DNA of 64,000 nt from positions 26,662,001-26,726,000 of the forward strand of contig CM059432.1 of NCBI GenBank assembly GCA_030390025.1. Reading direction: 5' to 3'. The DNA is from Squalus acanthias (Eukaryota). The translations under genes were made by a program, and so were the position numbers. Of the stretch, positions 1,814 to 63,451 are shown one piece after another. Numbering within the stretch: position 1 is the stretch's first letter; each line of letters opens with the position of its first letter. Under the pieces are notes generated by a model. The model ran no database searches, was not told the DNA's origin, and saw only the letters and a program-made list of their open reading frames with translations.

Positions 1814-3353
1814 CTTAAAAGAAGTGGCTGGTGAGATAGTTGATGCGTTGATTTTAATTTTCCAAAATTTCATAGATTCGGAGAAGGTTCCATTAGATTG
1901 AAAAATAGCGAATGTAACTCCTTTATTCAAAAAGGGAGACAGAAAGCAGGAAACTACAGGCCAGTTAGCTTAACATCTGTCATAGGAAAGATGTTAGAAG
2001 CTATTATTAAAGACGTTATAGCAGGGCATTTCGAAAAGTTCAAGGTAATCAGGCAGAGTCAACATGGTTTTGTGAAAGGGAAATCATGTTTAACAAATTT
2101 ATTGGGAGTCCTTTGAGGAAGTAACATGTGCTGTGGATAAAAGGGAACCGGTGGATGTACTGTACTTAGATTTCCAGAAGGCATTTGAAAAGGTGCCACA
2201 TCAAAGGTTATTGCGGAAAATAAAAGCTCATGGTGTAGGGGGTAACATATTGGCATGGAATAGAAGATTGGCTAGCTAACAGGAAACAGAGAGTAGGCAT
2301 AAATGGGTCATTTTCTGGTTGGCAAGATGTAACGAGTGGTGTGCCACAGGGATCAGTGCTGGGGCCTCAACTTTTTACAATTTATATAAATGACTTGGAT
2401 GAAGGGACTGAAGGTATGGTTGCTAAATTTGCTGATGATACAAAGATAGGTAGGAAAGTAAATTGTGAAGAGGACATAAGGAGGCTACAAAGTAATATAG
2501 ATAGGTTAAGTGAGTGGGCAAAGATCTGGCAAATGGAGTATAATGTGGGAAAATGTGAAATTGTCCATTTTGGCAGGAAAAATAAAAAAGAAGCATATTA
2601 TTTAAATGGTGAGAGATTGCAGAGCTCTGAGATGCAGAGGGATCTGGGTGTCCTAGTGCACGAATCACAAAAGGTTAGTATGCAGGCACAGCAAGTAATT
2701 AGGAAAGCTAATAGAATGTTATCATTTATTGCAAGGGGAATTGAATACAAAAGTAGGGAGGTTATGCTTCAGTTATACAGGGCATTGGTGAGACCACATG
2801 TGGAGTACTGTGTACAGTATTGGTCTCCTTATGTAAGGAAGGATGTAAATGCATTGGAAGCAGTTCAGAGAAGGTTTACTAGACTAATACCTGGAATGGG
2901 CGGTTTGTCTTATGAGGAAAGGTTGGATAGGCTAGGCTTGTATCCGCTGGAGTTTAGAAGAGTAAGAGGTGACTTGATTGAAACATATAAGATCCTGAGG
3001 GATTTTGACAGGGTGGATGTGGAGAGGACGTTTCCTCTTGTAGGAGAATCTAGAACTAGGGGTCACTGTTTAAAAATAAGGGGTCGCCCATTTAAGACAG
3101 AGATGAGGGGAAATTTTTTCTCACAGAGGGTCATGAGTCTTTGGAACTCTCTTCCTCAGAGGACGGTGGAAGCAGAGTCTTTGAATATTTTTAAGGCAGA
3201 GGTCGATAGATTCTTGATAAGCAAGGGGGTGAAAGGTTATCGGGGGTAGGCGGGAATGTGGAGTAATCGGATCAGCCATGATCTTATTGAATGGCGGAGC
3301 AGGCTCGAGGGGCCGAGTGGCCTACTCCTGCTCCTAATTCGTATGTTTGTATT
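1814..3353 (+). mobile_element. CR1 LINE 3' fragment, frameshifted RT
   Basis: ORFs 1898-2116 and 2341-3249 carry RT motifs; CR1 3' UTR; abuts the tail of the younger copy. Confidence 0.93.
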
Positions 3354-16134: not shown

Positions 16135-16370
16135 TATAATGTCCTTGAGAGAAGGGAACCTGCCCTCCTAACCCAGTCCCACACTAATGTGGTTGACTCT
16201 TAACTGCCCTCTGAAGTAGCCTAACAAGCCACTCAGTTATATCAAAGTGCTACCAAGAATACCACACAGACTGCAAGGTTCAAGAAGAAGGCCCATCATC
16301 ACCTGCTCAAGGTAAGTATGGTCAATAAATGCCAATGAAGACCACATTCTGAGAGAGAATAATAAACAAA
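16135..16370 (+). mobile_element. MetaSINE-like / bipartite short derivative of the LINE at 45103-48365 (head missing)
   Basis: Core ATGTGGTTGACTCTTAACTGCCCTCTGAA...GCCACTCAGTT joined to that LINE's 3' end (GGTTCAAGAAG...CAATAAATGC). Confidence 0.75.
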
Positions 16371-31954: not shown

Positions 31955-32298
31955 GACACGGCTACGGACACGGCAACGACACACCCAGCCCAGTCGACCC
32001 TGCAAAGTCCCACTCACCAACATCTGGGGACTTGTGCCAGAATTGGGAGAGCTGTCCCAAAGACTAGTTAAGCAACAGCCTGACGTAGTCATACTCACAG
32101 AAACATACCTTTCAGCCAATGTCACAAACTCCTCCATCCCTGGGTATGTCCTGTCCCACCGGCAGGACAGACCCACCAGGGGTGGCGACACGGTGGTATA
32201 CAGTCGGAAAGGAGTGTCCGTGGCAGTTCTCAACATTGACTCCGGACCCCATGAAGTCTCATGGCAACAGGTCAAGCATGGACAAGGAAACCTCCTGC
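31955..32298 (+). mobile_element. APE endonuclease fragment of the LINE family at 45103-48365
   Basis: TNIWGL...PDVVILTETYL...RQDRPTRGG; nucleotide match to 47660-47985 (minus). Confidence 0.85.
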
Positions 32299-45102: not shown

Positions 45103-48100
45103 TTTTTTTTAGTTCATTTTTATGGGAAGTAGATGTCACTGGCAAGGCCAGCATTTATTGCCTATCCCTAATTGCCCTTGAGAAGGTGGTAATGAGCCGC
45201 CTTCTTGAACCGCTGCAGTCCGTGTGGTGAAGGTACAGTGCTGTTAGTTAGGGAGTTCCAGGATTTTGACCCAGCAACGATGAAGGACCTGCGATATACT
45301 TCTAAGTCAGGATGGTGTGTGACTTGGAGGGGAACTTGGAGGTGGTGGTGTTCCCATGCGCCTGCTGCCCTTGTCCTTCTACGTGGAAGAGGTCGCGGGT
45401 TTGGGAGGTGCTACCGAAGAAGCCTTGGTGAGTTGCTGCAATGCATTTGTAGATGGTACACACTGCAGCCACAGTACACCAGTGGTGGAGGGAGTGAATG
45501 TGGAAGGTGTTGATGGGGTGCCAATCAATCGGACTGCTTTATCCTGGATGGTGTCAAGCTTCTTGAGTGTTGTTGGAGCTGCACTCATCCAGGCAACTGG
45601 AGAGTATGCCATCACACTCCTTACTTGTGCCTTGTAGATGGTGGAAAGGCTTTGGGGAGTCAGGAGGTGAGACACTCGCCACACAATACCTAGCCTCTGA
45701 CCTGCTCTTGTTGCCACAGTATTTATGTGACTGGTCCAGTTAAGTTTCTGGTCAATGGTGACCCCCAGGATGTTGATGGTGGGGGATTCGGCGATGCTAA
45801 TGCCATTGAATGTCAAGGGGAGGTGGTTAGACTCTCGCTTGTTGGAGATAGTCATTGCCTGGCACTTGTGTGGAGCGAATGTTACCTGCCACTTATCAGC
45901 CCAAGCCTGAACGTCGTCCAGGTCTTGTTGCATGCGGGCATGGACTGCTTCATTATCTGAGGAGTTGTGAATGGTGCTGAACACTGCAGTCATCAACGAA
46001 TATCCCCATTTCTGACCTTATGTTGGAGGGAAGTTCATTGATGAAGCAGCTGAAGATGGTTGGACCTAGGACACTGCCCTGAGGAACTCCTGCAGCGATG
46101 TCCTGGGGCCGTAATGATTGACCTTCAACCACCACAACCATCTTCCTCTGTGCTAGGTATGACTCCAGCCAGTGGAGCATTTTCCCTCTGATTCCCATTG
46201 ACTTCAGTTTTACTAGGGCTCCTTGATGCCACACGCGGACAAATGCTGCCTTGATGTCAAGGGCAGTCACTCTCACCTCACCTCTGGAATTCAGCTCCTT
46301 TGTCCATGTTTGGACCAAGGCTGAAATGAGGTCGGGAGCCAAGTGGTTTTGGCGGAACCCAAACTCGGCATCAGTGAGCTGGTTATTGGTGAGTAAGTGC
46401 AGCTTGATAGCACTGTCGATGACACCTTCCATCACTTTGGTGATGATTGAGAGTAGACTGATGGGGCGGTAATTGGCTGGATTGGATTTGTCCTACGTTT
46501 TGTGGACAGGACATACCTGGGCAGTTTACCATATTATCGGATAGATGCCAGTGTAGTAGCTGTACTGGAACAGCTTGGCTAGAGGTGCGGCTAGTTCTTC
46601 AGCACGATAGCAGGGATGTTGTTGGAGCCCATGGCCTTTGCTGTATCCAGTGTGCCCAGCCGTTTCTTGATATCACGTGGAGTGAATCGAATTGGCTGAA
46701 GACTGGCTTCTGTGATGGTGGGGGACCTCAGGAGTAGGCCGATATGGATCATCCACTTGGCACTTCTGGCTGAAGGTGGTTGCAAATGCTTCAGCCTTGT
46801 CTTTTGCACTGACGTGCTGGGCTCCACCATCATTGAGGATGGGGATATTCATGGAGCCTCCTCCTCCCATTAGTTGTTTAATGGTCCACCACCATTCACG
46901 ACTGAATGTGGCAGGACTGCAGAGCTTTGATCTGATCCGTTGATTGTGGAATTGCTTAGCCCTGTCTGCCCATGCTGCTTCCGCTTTTTAGAATGCATGT
47001 AGTCCTGTGTTGCAGCTTCCCCAGGTTGGCACCGCATTTTTAGGTATGCCTGGTGCTGCTCCTGGCATGCTCTTCCACACTCCTTATTGAATCAGGGTTT
47101 GTCCCCTGGCTTCATTGTAATGGTAGAGTGAGGGATATTCCAGGCCATGAGGTTACAGATTGTGGTGGAATACAATTCTGCTGCTGCTGCTGTGGCTCAC
47201 AGCACCTCATGGATGCCCAGTTTTTAGCTGCTAGATCTGTTCTGAATCTATCCCATTTAGCACGGTGGTAGTGCCACACAACACGATGGAGGGTGTCCTC
47301 AGTGTGAAGATGGGACTTCTTCTCCACAATGACTGTGCGGTGGTCACTGCTACCAATACTCTCATGAACAGATGCCTCTGCGATAGGTAGATTGGTGAGG
47401 ACGAGGTCAAGTAGGTTTTTTCCTCGTGTTGGTTCTCTCACCACCTGTCGCAGGCCCAGACTGGCAGTTATGCCCTTCAGGACTCGGCCAGCTCGGTCAG
47501 TTGTGGTGCTACCGCACCACTCTTGGTGATGGACATTGAAGTCTCCCACCCAGAGTACATTCTGTGCCCTTGCTATCCTCAGTGCTTCTTCCAAGTGGTG
47601 TTCAACATGGAGGAGTACTGATTGATCAGCTGAGGGAGGGCGGTAGGTGGTAATAAGCAGGAGGTTTCCTTGCCTATGCTTGACCTGAAGCCATGAGACT
47701 TCATAGGGTCCATAGTCAATGTTGAGGACTCCCAGGGCCACTCCTTCCCAGCTGTATACCACTGTGCCGCCACCCCTGGTGGGTCTCTCCTGCCGGTGGG
47801 ACAGGACATACCCAGAGATGGTGATGGAGGAGTTTGGGACATTGACTGAAAGGTATGATTCTGTGAGTATGACTATGTCAGGCTGTTGCTTGACTAGTCT
47901 GTGGGACAGCTCTCCCAGATGTTAGTGAGGAGGACTTTGCAGGGTCGACTGGGCTGGGTGTGCCATTGCCGTGTCCGTAGCCGGTGCCGAGGTCGATGCC
48001 GGGTGGTGCGTCCTGTTTCATTCTTATTAATTTTTTTCGTAGCGGTTTGTTACAACTGAGTGACTTGCTAGGCCATTTCAAAGGGCAGTTAAGAGTCAAC

Positions 48101-48365
48101 CACATTGCTGTGGGTCTGGAGTCACTTATAGGCCAGACCAGGTAAGAACGTCAGATTTCCTTCCCTAAAGGACATTACTGAACCAGATGGGTTTTTACGA
48201 CAATCCGATAGTTTCATTGTTACCATTACTGATACTAGCTTTTTATTCCAGATTTATTTAATTGAATTTAAATTCCCCAGCTGCCATGGTGGATTTGAAT
48301 TCACGTCTCTGGATCATTAGTCCAGGCTTCTGGATTACTAGCCCAGTTACATTACCACTACGTTA
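45103..48365 (-). mobile_element. CR1/L2-group LINE (distinct lineage) with tRNA-like head, SINE-like core and one decayed APE-RT ORF
   Basis: APE (YRPP, VGDFN, LDLVLTN, SDH), RT (ALDIKAAF.RVWH, GVPQGSVLGP); tail GGCAATAAATGCTGGCCTTGCCAG; A/B-box-like motifs at 48355-48365 and 48291-48302. Confidence 0.88.
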
Positions 48366-48373
48366 CCGTTAAG

Positions 48374-49482
48374 TTGCCACATAAAAGGTTACTGCACAAG
48401 ATAAGATCTCACGGGGTTGGGGGTAATATATTAGCATGGTTAGAGGATTGGCTAACTAACAGAAAACAGAGAGTCGGGATAAATGGATCATTTTCAGGTT
48501 GGCAAACTGTATCTAGTGGGGTGCCGCAGGGATCAGTGCTGGGGCCTCAACTATTTACAATCTACATTAATGACTTGGATGAAGGGACCGACTGTAATGT
48601 AGCCAAATTTGCTGATGATACAAAGATAGGTGGGAAAGCAAAGGATATAGATAGGCTAAGTGAGTGGGCAAAAATCTGGCAGATGGAGTTTAATGTGGGA
48701 AAATTCGAGGTTATCCACTTTGGTAGGAAAAATAAAAAAGCTAATTATTATTTAAATGGGGAGAGATTACAAAATGCTGCGGTACAGAGGGATCTGGGGG
48801 TCCTTGTATATGAATCACAAAAAGTTAGCATGTAGGTCCAGCAAGTAATTAGGAAGGCAAATGGAATGTTGGCCTTTATTGCAAAGGGAATGGAGTATAA
48901 AAGTAGGGAAGTCCTGTTACAACTGTACAGGGCATTGGTGAGACCACACTTGGAGTACTGCGTACAGTTTTGGTCTCCTTATTTAAGGAAGGATATATTT
49001 GCATTGGAGGCAGTTCAGAGAAGGTTCTTATGAAGAAAGCTTGATCAGTTTGGGCCTATACTCATTGGAGTTTAGAAGAATGAGAGGGGATCTTATTGAA
49101 ACATATAAGATTCTGAAGGGGCTTGACAGGGTAGATGCAGAGAGGATGTTTCCCCTCGTGGGGGAATCTAGAACTAGGGGACATAATTTCACGATAACGG
49201 GGCACCCATTTAAAACAGAAATGAGGAGGAATTTCTTCTCTCAGAGGGTCGTGAATCTTTGGAATTCTCTTCCCCAGAGAGCTGTGGAGGCTGGGGCATT
49301 GAATATATTTAAGGTGGAGATAGACAGATTTTTAAATGGTAAGGGAGTCAAGGGTTATGGGGAGCGGGCAGGGAAGTGGAGTTGAGGCCAAGATCAGATC
49401 AGCCATGATCTTATTGAATGGCGGAGCAGGCTCGACGGGCCGAATGACCTACTCCTGCTCCTACGTCTTATATTCTTATGTT
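48374..49482 (+). mobile_element. CR1 LINE 5'-truncated
   Basis: RT motifs in ORFs 48374-48835 and 48999-49385; CR1 tail. Confidence 0.93.
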
Positions 49483-59814: not shown

Positions 59815-61759
59815 AATTAAATAAATCTGTTGGACTATAACCTGGTGTTGTGCGACTTCTCATTTTCATAAATAGAGGCATAGAGTACAAAAGCAAGGAA
59901 GTTATGATGAACCTTTATAAAACACTGGTTCGGCCTCAACTGGAGTATTGTGTCCAATTCTGGGCACCGCACTTTAGGAAGGATGTGAAGGCCTTAGAGA
60001 GGGTGCAGAAAAGATTTACAAGAATGGTTCCAGGGATGAGGGACTTCATTCATGTGGATAGACTAGAAAAGATGTGGTTGTTCTCCTTAGAACAGAGAAG
60101 ATTGAGAGGAGATTTGATAGAGGTGTTCAAAATCATAAGGGGTCTAGGCAGAGTAGATAGAGAGAAACTGATCCCATTGGCGGAAGGGTCGAGAACCAGA
60201 GGACACAGATTTAAGGTAATTGGCAAAAGAACCAAAGGCGGCATGAGGAAAACCTTTTTTACGCAGCGAGTGGTTAGGATCTGGGAATGCACTGCCTGAG
60301 AGGGTGGTGGAGGCAGACTCAATCATGGCTTTCAAAAGGGAATTGGGTAAGTGCCTGAAGGAAAAAAAAATTGCAGGGCTACGGGGAAAGGGCAGGGGAG
60401 TGGGACTAGCTGAAGTGTTCTTGCAGAGAGCCGGCACGGGCTCGACGGGCCGAATGGCCCCCTTCTGTGCTGTAACCATTCTATGATTCTATGAACATAT
60501 ACGTTTTCCTGCTTACATCCTGACTGCATTGCAATCAAAACTCCTTGCATCATATCCTCTTCTTTCCCCGAACCTCAAAGCTCCTTGACTCCCTCTGTCT
60601 TCTTCTCGTCCTACAAACTACTTTTAAAAGCAAAGCTTAGTATTAGCTAACCATCAGTGCTTTGCTTATCTTGTCTTCTATCCTACCCTTCCCAAACTTG
60701 ATGCTGTCCTGCAATATCAAGGCTTGGGCCTTCACCTAGATTTCCCAATAACTGAGGCTGCATTGAACAATGCCTGGGAGCAGGCTGACTGTGTATTCTC
60801 TCAGCAGTAAACGTGGTTACAATCGAAGCTGAGGGACAATATGCCAAGAGTTAAACTTAAAGAAAAAGAAAGTACTTTAAAAATCAGATTCTTTTTTATT
60901 GATGTATTCACCTAGATTAAAGCCTATTTTGAAAGTTTATTAATATTATGATGGGGTGTGCAAATCTTTTCTCTTTTTGAGCCAATTAGCCGTGTGCCAT
61001 GAGGCACAGAGTACAAGAACAAGGAGATAACGTTGATGTTGTCAGGTTACAGGTGGAGAACGATATTCGGTTTTCAGAACCCCGATATAGGAACAATATA
61101 AAAGCAATGGGAAAAAACATTTAATGGCTGGGAAATCATGAGCTGAGGGCACGTGCCCATGACTACTGAGATGCACTCTCTGCGACTGCTGCTCCTCACA
61201 CATTCCTTGAGATCTTTCCCCTACCAACACTGAAAATAAATCCACCGTGCTCTTAATAAGTGTGAGTGTATAGTCTGCATATTACTGTCACCAATGTTAT
61301 TGTAAGAAAGTTTAATCTGCTTGTACCAAATTCATCTCTTTGCTATTTTTACAGCGGAGGGAGCCCATTTATTTTAAATTCTTCGCATCAAAGTGATCCG
61401 CAAATGGTTAACGCCTCTGTGAAAATGGCTGAGAGAGGAGTTTAAACATGACAGTGTTAAGCGCTCATATTCCAACATTATCAAGAATAATTTCTACCGT
61501 TCTAAGCGTATGCTGTTTCTTAGATTTCATTATTTTATATTAGCTTTCTATTAACTGTTGAGTGTAATTCCTGGACTGGCCCTCATTAGTTATGCATGGT
61601 TGGATGGCAGCAATAAAACACCTTCCCATGGGTTTCCTGCTACTGGCAGAGAGGGAAACTCAGTGGTGCTGCGCCGCTTAAAATGTTGCAGCTAATTAAA
61701 AGGGAACATGTTTTTTCGTGGGGAGCAACAGAACAGTGCAGCAATGAGGATCTAACCAC

Positions 61760-62470
61760 CGTCCCCTTGACATTCAACGGCATTACCATCGCCGAATCCC
61801 GGCAACATCCTGGGGGTCACCATTGACCAGAAACTTAACTGGACCAGCCACATAAATACCGTGACAACAAGAGCAGGTCAGAGGCTAGGTATTCTGCGGC
61901 GAGTGTCTCACCTCTTGACTCCCCAAAGCCTTTCTACCATCTACAAGGCACAAATAAGGAGTGTGATGGAATACTCTCCACTTGCCTGGATGAGTGCAGC
62001 TCCAACAACACTCAAGAAGCTCAACACCATCCAGGACAAAGCAGCCCGCTTGATTGGCACCCCATCCACCACCTTAAACATTCACTCCCTCACCACTGGC
62101 GCATCGTGGCTGCTGTGTGTATCATCTACAAGATGCACTGCAGCTACTCGCCAAGGCTTCTTCGGCAGCACCTCCCAAACCCACGACCTCTACCACAAGG
62201 GCAGCAGTCTCATGGGAACACCACCACCTCCAAGTTCCCCTCCAAGTCACACACCATCCTGACTTGGACATATATCGCCGTTCCTTCATTGTCGCTGGGT
62301 CAAAATCCTGGAACTCCCTCCCTAACAGCACTGTGGGAGTACCATCACCACATGGACTGCAGCGGTTCAAGAAGGCGGCTCACCATCACCTTCTCAAGGG
62401 CAACTAGGGATGGGCAATAAATGCTGGCCTTGCCAGCGACGCCCACATCCCATGAAGAATAAAAAATAAA
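61760..62470 (+). mobile_element. 3' part of the LINE family at 45103-48365
   Basis: LSTIYKAQIRSVMEYS; same tail GGGCAATAAATGCTGGCCTTGCCAGCGACGCCCACATCCC. Confidence 0.9.
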
Positions 62471-63451
62471 AAAGGATCAGGGTGGGGGGAACTTCAGCAT
62501 CAGAAAGGGCTCCCAGATTTACTGGTACTTCACTGGATGACCTTCTAGTAGAAATAAGGTCCAGAATATCAGGTCTCCTGGGGACACAGAGTAGGAAACT
62601 GCCACATAGTGCAGGAAGGTTACATAGCTTCACATGATTGGCCAAGGTAAGAGATAGCACTGTTCCACTAGCACCTACTTTAAAAATGATAGAAGCATGA
62701 ATTACCTCCTTGCCTCTCATCGGGAACAAAGGGACATAGAAATTGCTAGATGAAAAAAATGACCATGGTCCATGCCACATTGGGTTTTTCTCTTGAAGGT
62801 GAGATATTTAAATAGAGCCTGCACGTGTCATAACAATGGTGTGTATGTAAACATATGGGTGATAAGAAGTATCGCTTAACTCTGTATTCTCATGACAAAG
62901 GAAAAGGTAGTGCACAGCCAGTGCAACAGGAGGACAAACACCAATCTTGAAAACTTTGGAGTAAAAATTTGCCTGTGCCTATTTTTGGGACCAGACCAGC
63001 GCTGCACACCAGAGCACACCCACACCAAGAAGCCCGAGGATCAATAGAAATTGGACGCGAAACGTCAATTTAGGGCCACCAACTCAGCGACAGCGGTCCT
63101 CAGGTAATTCCTGGGAGGTGGGTTGGACTGGGCAATCGTGACACCTGTGGAGTCGGGGAAGAACTCTTTGTGGCTCCATAATAAGTGATTTATTTTAAAA
63201 CAAAAAACATTGCCGAAGGTGTGCTGAATAATCCTGAGCGGGGCAGGCCCGACGCTCATCACTGAGTAATTTTGAAAAGGGGTCCCTCCCAAAATGAGTC
63301 CTTGGAGGCTTCTCAGCCACCTACCTCTCAACCTCACTTTAGTCAGGGAGCACCTCGTAGAAGTAGTAGGTTAGGAGCAAGAGCAAGTAAGGTAGTGTAA
63401 GACGTGTGGGATTACCCCTCGCCCCGTCCAACTGGTTATAGAGTTCGGACT

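Follow-up and report, generated by a model that had tools for sequence, protein, structure and literature searches.

How does a LINE come to begin with a tRNA-like head and a SINE-type core, and is such a 5′ end an accident of one locus or the way in which a whole family begins? If the latter, how would such an element be transcribed and translated? These questions are raised by an element of ∼3.3 kb on the minus strand of the window, by which we mean the whole 64,000-nucleotide stretch of Squalus acanthias DNA that was analysed. A sequence-only reading of this stretch had proposed an autonomous, SINE-headed LINE with a single ORF. The element is a dead copy of Zenon, an abundant and already catalogued LINE family of sharks and rays. 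It is nearly full length (45103–48370), only the family's leading GGG being missing, and it runs in the order head, AT-rich linker, core, leader, APE endonuclease, reverse transcriptase (RT), short tail and poly-A. The tRNA-derived head (48280–48370) has a long variable-arm hairpin, and it contains a Pol III A box at 48355–48365 and a B box at 48291–48302, each with one G>A change in this copy and each where it had been proposed. The AT-rich linker (48197–48279) contains no TTTT and is followed by a conserved core of ∼145 nt (48053–48196; suggested earlier at ∼48050–48200), which is common to SINE-like copies and was matched to no named SINE domain. An Arg-rich N-terminal leader (47939–48049) opens onto the APE domain (47340–47938; Pfam PF14529/PF03372, E 6e-15), whose first motif, at ∼47938, lies 115 nt after the core. 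The RT domain (45754–46489; Pfam PF00078, E 8e-27), here split by frameshifts, and the tail (45103–45240) follow, the latter comprising the last ORF codons, a stop (45170–45168), an AATAAA (45159–45154), a stem-loop and a poly-A that ends at 45103. The close spacing of core and APE, the succession of APE, RT and tail, and the absence of both a SINE tail ahead of the ORF and any space for an ORF1 had all been read from the letters, and all are borne out.

The window copy and 40 fetched copies together gave a family majority sequence of 3,310 nt, to which individual copies are 92.9–97.4% identical. The window copy matches the majority at 3,118 of 3,262 aligned bases (95.6%), and its ORF is broken by 8 frameshifts and 4 in-frame stops. 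A 5′-truncated CR1-type LINE fragment (48371–49400, plus strand) adjoins the Zenon head, head to head, and the leading GGG of the Zenon copy is absent at this joint.

Seen as a single locus only, the core–APE junction could be the product of a one-off SINE insertion or template switch. The 3.7-Gb host genome refutes that explanation and leaves it next to no probability: all 40 scored matches among 5,826 candidates span the junction, and a 17-nt core-end motif typical of LINE-type copies has 5,553 exact matches. Other exact motif counts are 5,214 for the core end, 3,738 for the APE start and 21,179 for a site near the 3′ end of the ORF, with 0 matches for the reversed-motif controls; the far greater frequency of the 3′ motif means that most copies are 5′-truncated, as is usual for LINEs. 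At 30 APE-start loci (the first 30 on contig C1), the core lies upstream every time, once interrupted by an insertion; 19 of these loci extend to the head start, and the other 11 break off inside the head or core and have no sequence in common next to the junction. Among 30 fetched copies long enough to include the first 25 nt, 17 begin with the same GGGAA. None of the 30 APE-anchored loci has an ORF1 or any alternative 5′ end. Across the family the 5′ end is fixed, and it is the tRNA head. Independent target-site duplications, which the sequence-only reading had named as a further sign of such copies, are not enriched: a duplication of at least 6 nt flanks 1 of 21 full-length copies, compared with 1.7% of mismatched flank pairs. 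One full-length copy (L103, G000:C1:88887100-88891400) is flanked on both sides by 86 nt of directly duplicated sequence (89.5% identical), a length well beyond that of ordinary target-site duplications. At the APE start (window 47917), several copies (the window copy and some of L001–L030) have lost 19 nt between short direct repeats, at a frequency that is biased because the search query carried the deletion; many copies have similar microhomology-bounded deletions.

What is this family, and what about it is new? Zenon LINEs have been reported from sharks, rays, coelacanth and hagfish, and all of them lack ORF1 and end in poly-A (Stuart et al. 2026, PMC13343379). Our comparison with the published consensuses was made by eye and covers the first 400 nt of each. 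The first 345 nt of our majority equal the SquAca_Zenon-1 consensus (Supplementary Table 2 of that paper) except at about two places, namely one subfamily site and the A-rich linker. The consensus is 3,314 nt long and the majority 3,310 nt plus GGG, and both have the single APE–RT ORF, the missing ORF1 and the poly-A tail of CR1-Zenon. Given this 5′ match, the family and its missing ORF1 are already known, and the new part is the reading of promoter and translation. The main text of PMC13343379 holds 0 occurrences of "tRNA", "promoter", "polymerase" and "start codon", and a search of the open literature, with subscription papers and Repbase/Dfam entries outside its scope, returned no description of a tRNA-headed or Pol III-transcribed autonomous LINE. 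The promoter architecture of this known family is apparently undescribed. By eye, the CarCar, ScyCan, RhiTyp and HypSab consensuses also start with the same tRNA-like head; A and B boxes can be made out in all five shark and ray consensuses (the B box is imperfect in HypSab), the variable-arm stem persists despite sequence differences, and the core shows 3–7 differences to the consensuses of three other species. The first 400 nt of two hagfish and one coelacanth consensuses contain no tRNA-like head. Within the genome, shared variants per 100 sites number 2.8 in the core versus 6.9 in the head and 7.4 in the linker, all from small counts. A degenerate core pattern had no match in either metagenome or viral contigs, and blastn with leader and tail found no match among 160 related loci of other organisms. 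In a quick RT tree that includes only unnamed relatives, the shark RT sits on a long, unresolved branch.

Does the headed element depend on its own protein? The majority contains one ORF open for 973 codons. With CpG sites excluded, omega for changes private to one copy is 0.97 (transitions) and 1.07 (transversions), and for changes present in at least 5 of 41 copies it is 0.29 (transitions; 16 N, 28 S) and 0.43 (transversions; 15 N, 8 S). The purifying selection on these shared ORF variants implies that those headed elements which spread depended on the protein they encode; in other words, they were autonomous. Anatomy and autonomy of the headed LINE are well supported, and with a fixed head and body in many copies, the proposal of an autonomous, SINE-headed, single-ORF LINE stands. 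Could the element be a non-autonomous chimera nonetheless, in which a SINE head was fused to what remains of an ORF2 and mobilised in trans by a distinct, conventional master LINE? The lack of an AUG start to the ORF would fit, as would the finding that none of the 40 fetched copies has an intact ORF, the longest open stretch being 478 aa. The selection on shared variants, the openness of the majority ORF, the single type of 5′ end at the APE-anchored loci and the same anatomy in the consensuses of other species argue the other way, such that this explanation is largely refuted and we hold it to be very improbable.

If the headed LINE is autonomous, which polymerase reads it? Pol III stops at T-runs, and its RNA is uncapped. 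From its sequence, we consider it likely that the Zenon LINE is transcribed by Pol III. The family majority matches both box patterns, its 5′ boundary falls sharply at the start of the head, as expected of an internal promoter, and its sense strand has no internal terminator of four or more Ts, as for a type-2 Pol III unit (0 TTTT and 7 TTT in 3,310 nt). ARAGORN and Rfam find no tRNA in the head of the window copy; at five other loci, the Rfam tRNA model matches two (one, the sister copy L009, at 29.8 bits versus a gathering score of 29) and gives no match at three; most heads score under this threshold, which counts against Pol III use. The triplet at the anticodon position suggests a Leu tRNA as a possible donor of the head. 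A donor search of the genome returned Lys and Cys tRNAs alone, with a best z of 4.5, for Cys, which is not decisive; tandem arrays of tRNA-Lys(TTT) genes spaced by ∼1.8 kb were seen on contigs C29, C2208, C1484 and C1516 of the same assembly (G000).

The scarcity of T-runs can be weighed against several nulls. Recoding of the same protein with uniform codons yields a mean of 5.1 TTTT and none in 1 of 1,000 trials; with the element's third-position bias the mean is 4.1, with none in 10 of 1,000; with the element's own codon usage, none occur in 126 of 1,000, and TTT runs are still low (5 against 11.3; 10 of 1,000). The majority ORF itself uses TTT for 3 of its Phe codons and TTC for 15. Shuffles of the window copy lack TTTT in 4 of 500 cases when mononucleotides are preserved and in 64 of 500, which is not significant, when dinucleotides are. 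The density of TTTT is 0.20/kb at 20.5% T in Zenon copies versus 2.92/kb at 24.9% T in 43 CR1 fragments of the same genome; base composition predicts about seven times the TTTT that Zenon copies have, and it matches the CR1 figure; most TTTT sites in Zenon copies (16 of 19) are private. Among 92 relatives (those with a match of at least 2 kb out of the 160 related loci), the median observed/expected ratio for TTTT is 1.21, none lacks TTTT, and the ratio is below 0.3 in two. A B-box-like word occurs in 1 of the 61 relatives with 5′ room, in AT-rich DNA, and relaxed ARAGORN runs returned noise. One T-poor related locus with few T-runs lacks its 5′ end (L214, JARHYK010000017.1), and many prokaryote genome bins contain contigs with eukaryote-type APE–RT LINEs (L211–L290), likely host contamination. 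A tRNA-type promoter, the lack of a normal start codon and the avoidance of four-T runs together point to Zenon as a likely rare case of a protein-coding element transcribed by Pol III.

Where, then, would translation begin? The first in-frame Met is codon 287, past the APE domain, and an in-frame TAA (48050–48052) directly after the core bounds the ORF upstream. Most relatives start with Met, several with a basic leader, and the shark ORF has an Arg-rich leader without Met. Non-AUG initiation of the ORF is likely on these grounds. The core ends in a predicted hairpin (48061–48075) with a 7-nt anticodon-like loop, and the loop's UAGC is complementary to a GCUA ∼20 nt downstream, whose in-frame GCT (48041–48043) is a candidate initiation site. 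Of 35 pattern-matched copies, 33 have the GCT in frame with the ORF, although slippage in the linker, a trinucleotide-like repeat, would go in steps of three in any case; by eye the GCT is in frame in the consensuses of all four other species, and the consensus published for SquAca has it displaced by one base. The 4-nt pairing of loop and GCT(A), found post hoc, has a chance probability of about 0.03, and the case for it is weaker because 9 of 62 copies have a variant loop. The core folds no more stably than shuffled sequence (z −0.55), a triple pseudoknot (PKII/PKIII) is not clear in the helix list, and Rfam gave no match to an IRES or HDV-like ribozyme in the window copy or the other loci scanned. 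We regard an IRES-like start at the core end as a tentative lead. Somewhat more doubtful is a complete scheme in which the autonomous LINE would make a full Pol III transcript and translate it free of cap and AUG through a core-end structure that mimics a tRNA anticodon, like the factorless IRESs of viruses, its SINE offspring keeping the core; if this is true, the conserved SINE body is a ribosome-binding module inherited from a LINE.

The main competitor leaves transcription to Pol II, starting from the core or reading through from the host, and treats the tRNA head as the relic of an old SINE fusion, the low T content having some other cause. The AATAAA and poly-A of the tail would suit Pol II as well, the element is T-poor overall (20.5%), and the weaker nulls (dinucleotide shuffling and own codon usage) leave room for chance. 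Its translation could use an in-frame AUG-GCC-UAG micro-ORF inside the terminal hairpin of the core (48076–48068), which by eye shares the ORF frame in 4 of the 5 consensuses and could precede AUG-independent reinitiation. Against this, both boxes have been retained in sharks and a ray, and the variable-arm stem has survived sequence change (both by eye); the sharp 5′ end at the head start and the TTTT deficit of Zenon copies, with CR1 and the relatives at expectation, also speak against it, and we consider the Pol II explanation possible but unlikely. Far less probable is a Pol III-type head with translation from a leader AUG in the +1 frame and a subsequent shift into the ORF. All five shark and ray species have that AUG in their -1 consensus, and by eye some between-species changes are silent in its frame, but 27 of 57 copies no longer have it, and no classical slippery heptamer is seen in the leader. 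Additionally, of six shared non-CpG leader variants, four are silent in the ORF frame and just one in the +1 frame, the other five altering the +1 peptide.

Our best explanation, which the sequence makes probable, is accordingly an autonomous, tRNA-headed Zenon LINE with likely Pol III transcription and non-AUG initiation. Pol III would read the whole 3.3 kb because it would meet no T-run; the RNA would be uncapped, and so the core would likely recruit ribosomes and set the frame; the Zenon protein would copy the RNA from its 3′ tail; and removal of the ORF by internal deletion would leave a ready-made SINE, likely many times over. LINEs are usually described as coding Pol II messages and SINEs as non-coding Pol III RNAs (PMC5786205). 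If our explanation is true, a LINE that keeps a tRNA head across sharks and rays and avoids T-runs over 3.3 kb blurs this division, its RNA is a natural protein-coding Pol III transcript, and a single internal deletion can turn a LINE into a SINE. The role of conserved SINE bodies also becomes testable, as the body here occupies the very place at which translation would have to start without an AUG. Uncapped RNA with proposed IRES use has been reported for the retrotransposons R2 and L1Tc (PMC3383444), and in Type 6 (dicistrovirus IGR) IRESs non-AUG initiation is set by an anticodon–codon mimic (PMC12221177); the likeness of Zenon to the latter consists of one hairpin and a 4-bp pairing. The head–body–tail plan with A and B boxes is common to Zenon, MetaSINEs, DeuSINEs (e.g. 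SacSINE1, with a Deu body and an L2-type tail; PMC5499810), the V-SINE HE1 and CORE SINEs, whereas in Zenon alone of these a coding ORF under selection separates body from tail. In bivalves, Zenon LINEs are SINE partners (PMC11481361). The bipartite non-autonomous LINE derivatives compiled by Kojima (2018, PMC5786205), reported there only for RTE, Ingi, Vingi and R2, resemble the SINE-like Zenon copies in being short products of internal deletion that keep both ends; they become SINEs only on acquiring a small-RNA head from elsewhere, whereas the parent Zenon LINE is already headed.

Is the LINE the source of the SINEs, as had been suggested? Half of 30 core-anchored loci (15) continue into the ORF, and the other 15 jump from core to tail. 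One short form with a fixed junction has 567 exact matches; another motif, with 2,508, marks older LINE copies together with short forms that have many different junctions, several retaining the first ORF codons. The SINE-like tail includes the last codons of the ORF and so comes from the LINE. On a tree of 71 5′ modules (44 LINE, 27 SINE-like), rooted at the midpoint only, the LINE/SINE label changes 14 times, with at least 4 changes forced by strong branches, and the simplest account is that the younger short forms likely arose by repeated internal deletion. The proposal holds for these younger copies, which are interspersed with LINE heads; on the same tree, a supported group of 7 older SINE-like rows stands as sister to all sampled LINE heads, and the first origin may have run in either direction, with the head possibly taken from an older SINE. 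The suggested resemblance of the core to the MetaSINE domain, whose 66 bp directly follow the tRNA head in MetaSINEs, was not confirmed: by eye the core is unlike both the BivaMeta and the BivaMD alignment, and of 6 core words none is present in the supplement of PMC4824008. Exact-word searches of two published supplements gave no match to the DeuSINE, V-SINE, CORE-SINE or UCON3 central domains. A suspected core–tail pairing proved inexact, with a single 7-nt match elsewhere. Majority nt 329–335 (window ∼48046–48041), at the ORF start, form a 7-nt inverted match with the tail (∼45215), near old SINE-like core–tail joints, and may favor deletion there. The window itself also holds a 5′-truncated SINE-like derivative with core joined to tail (16173–16332, plus strand), and two further Zenon fragments (61751–62473 and 31959–32298, both plus strand), one a 5′-truncated 3′ end and one an isolated APE-start piece.
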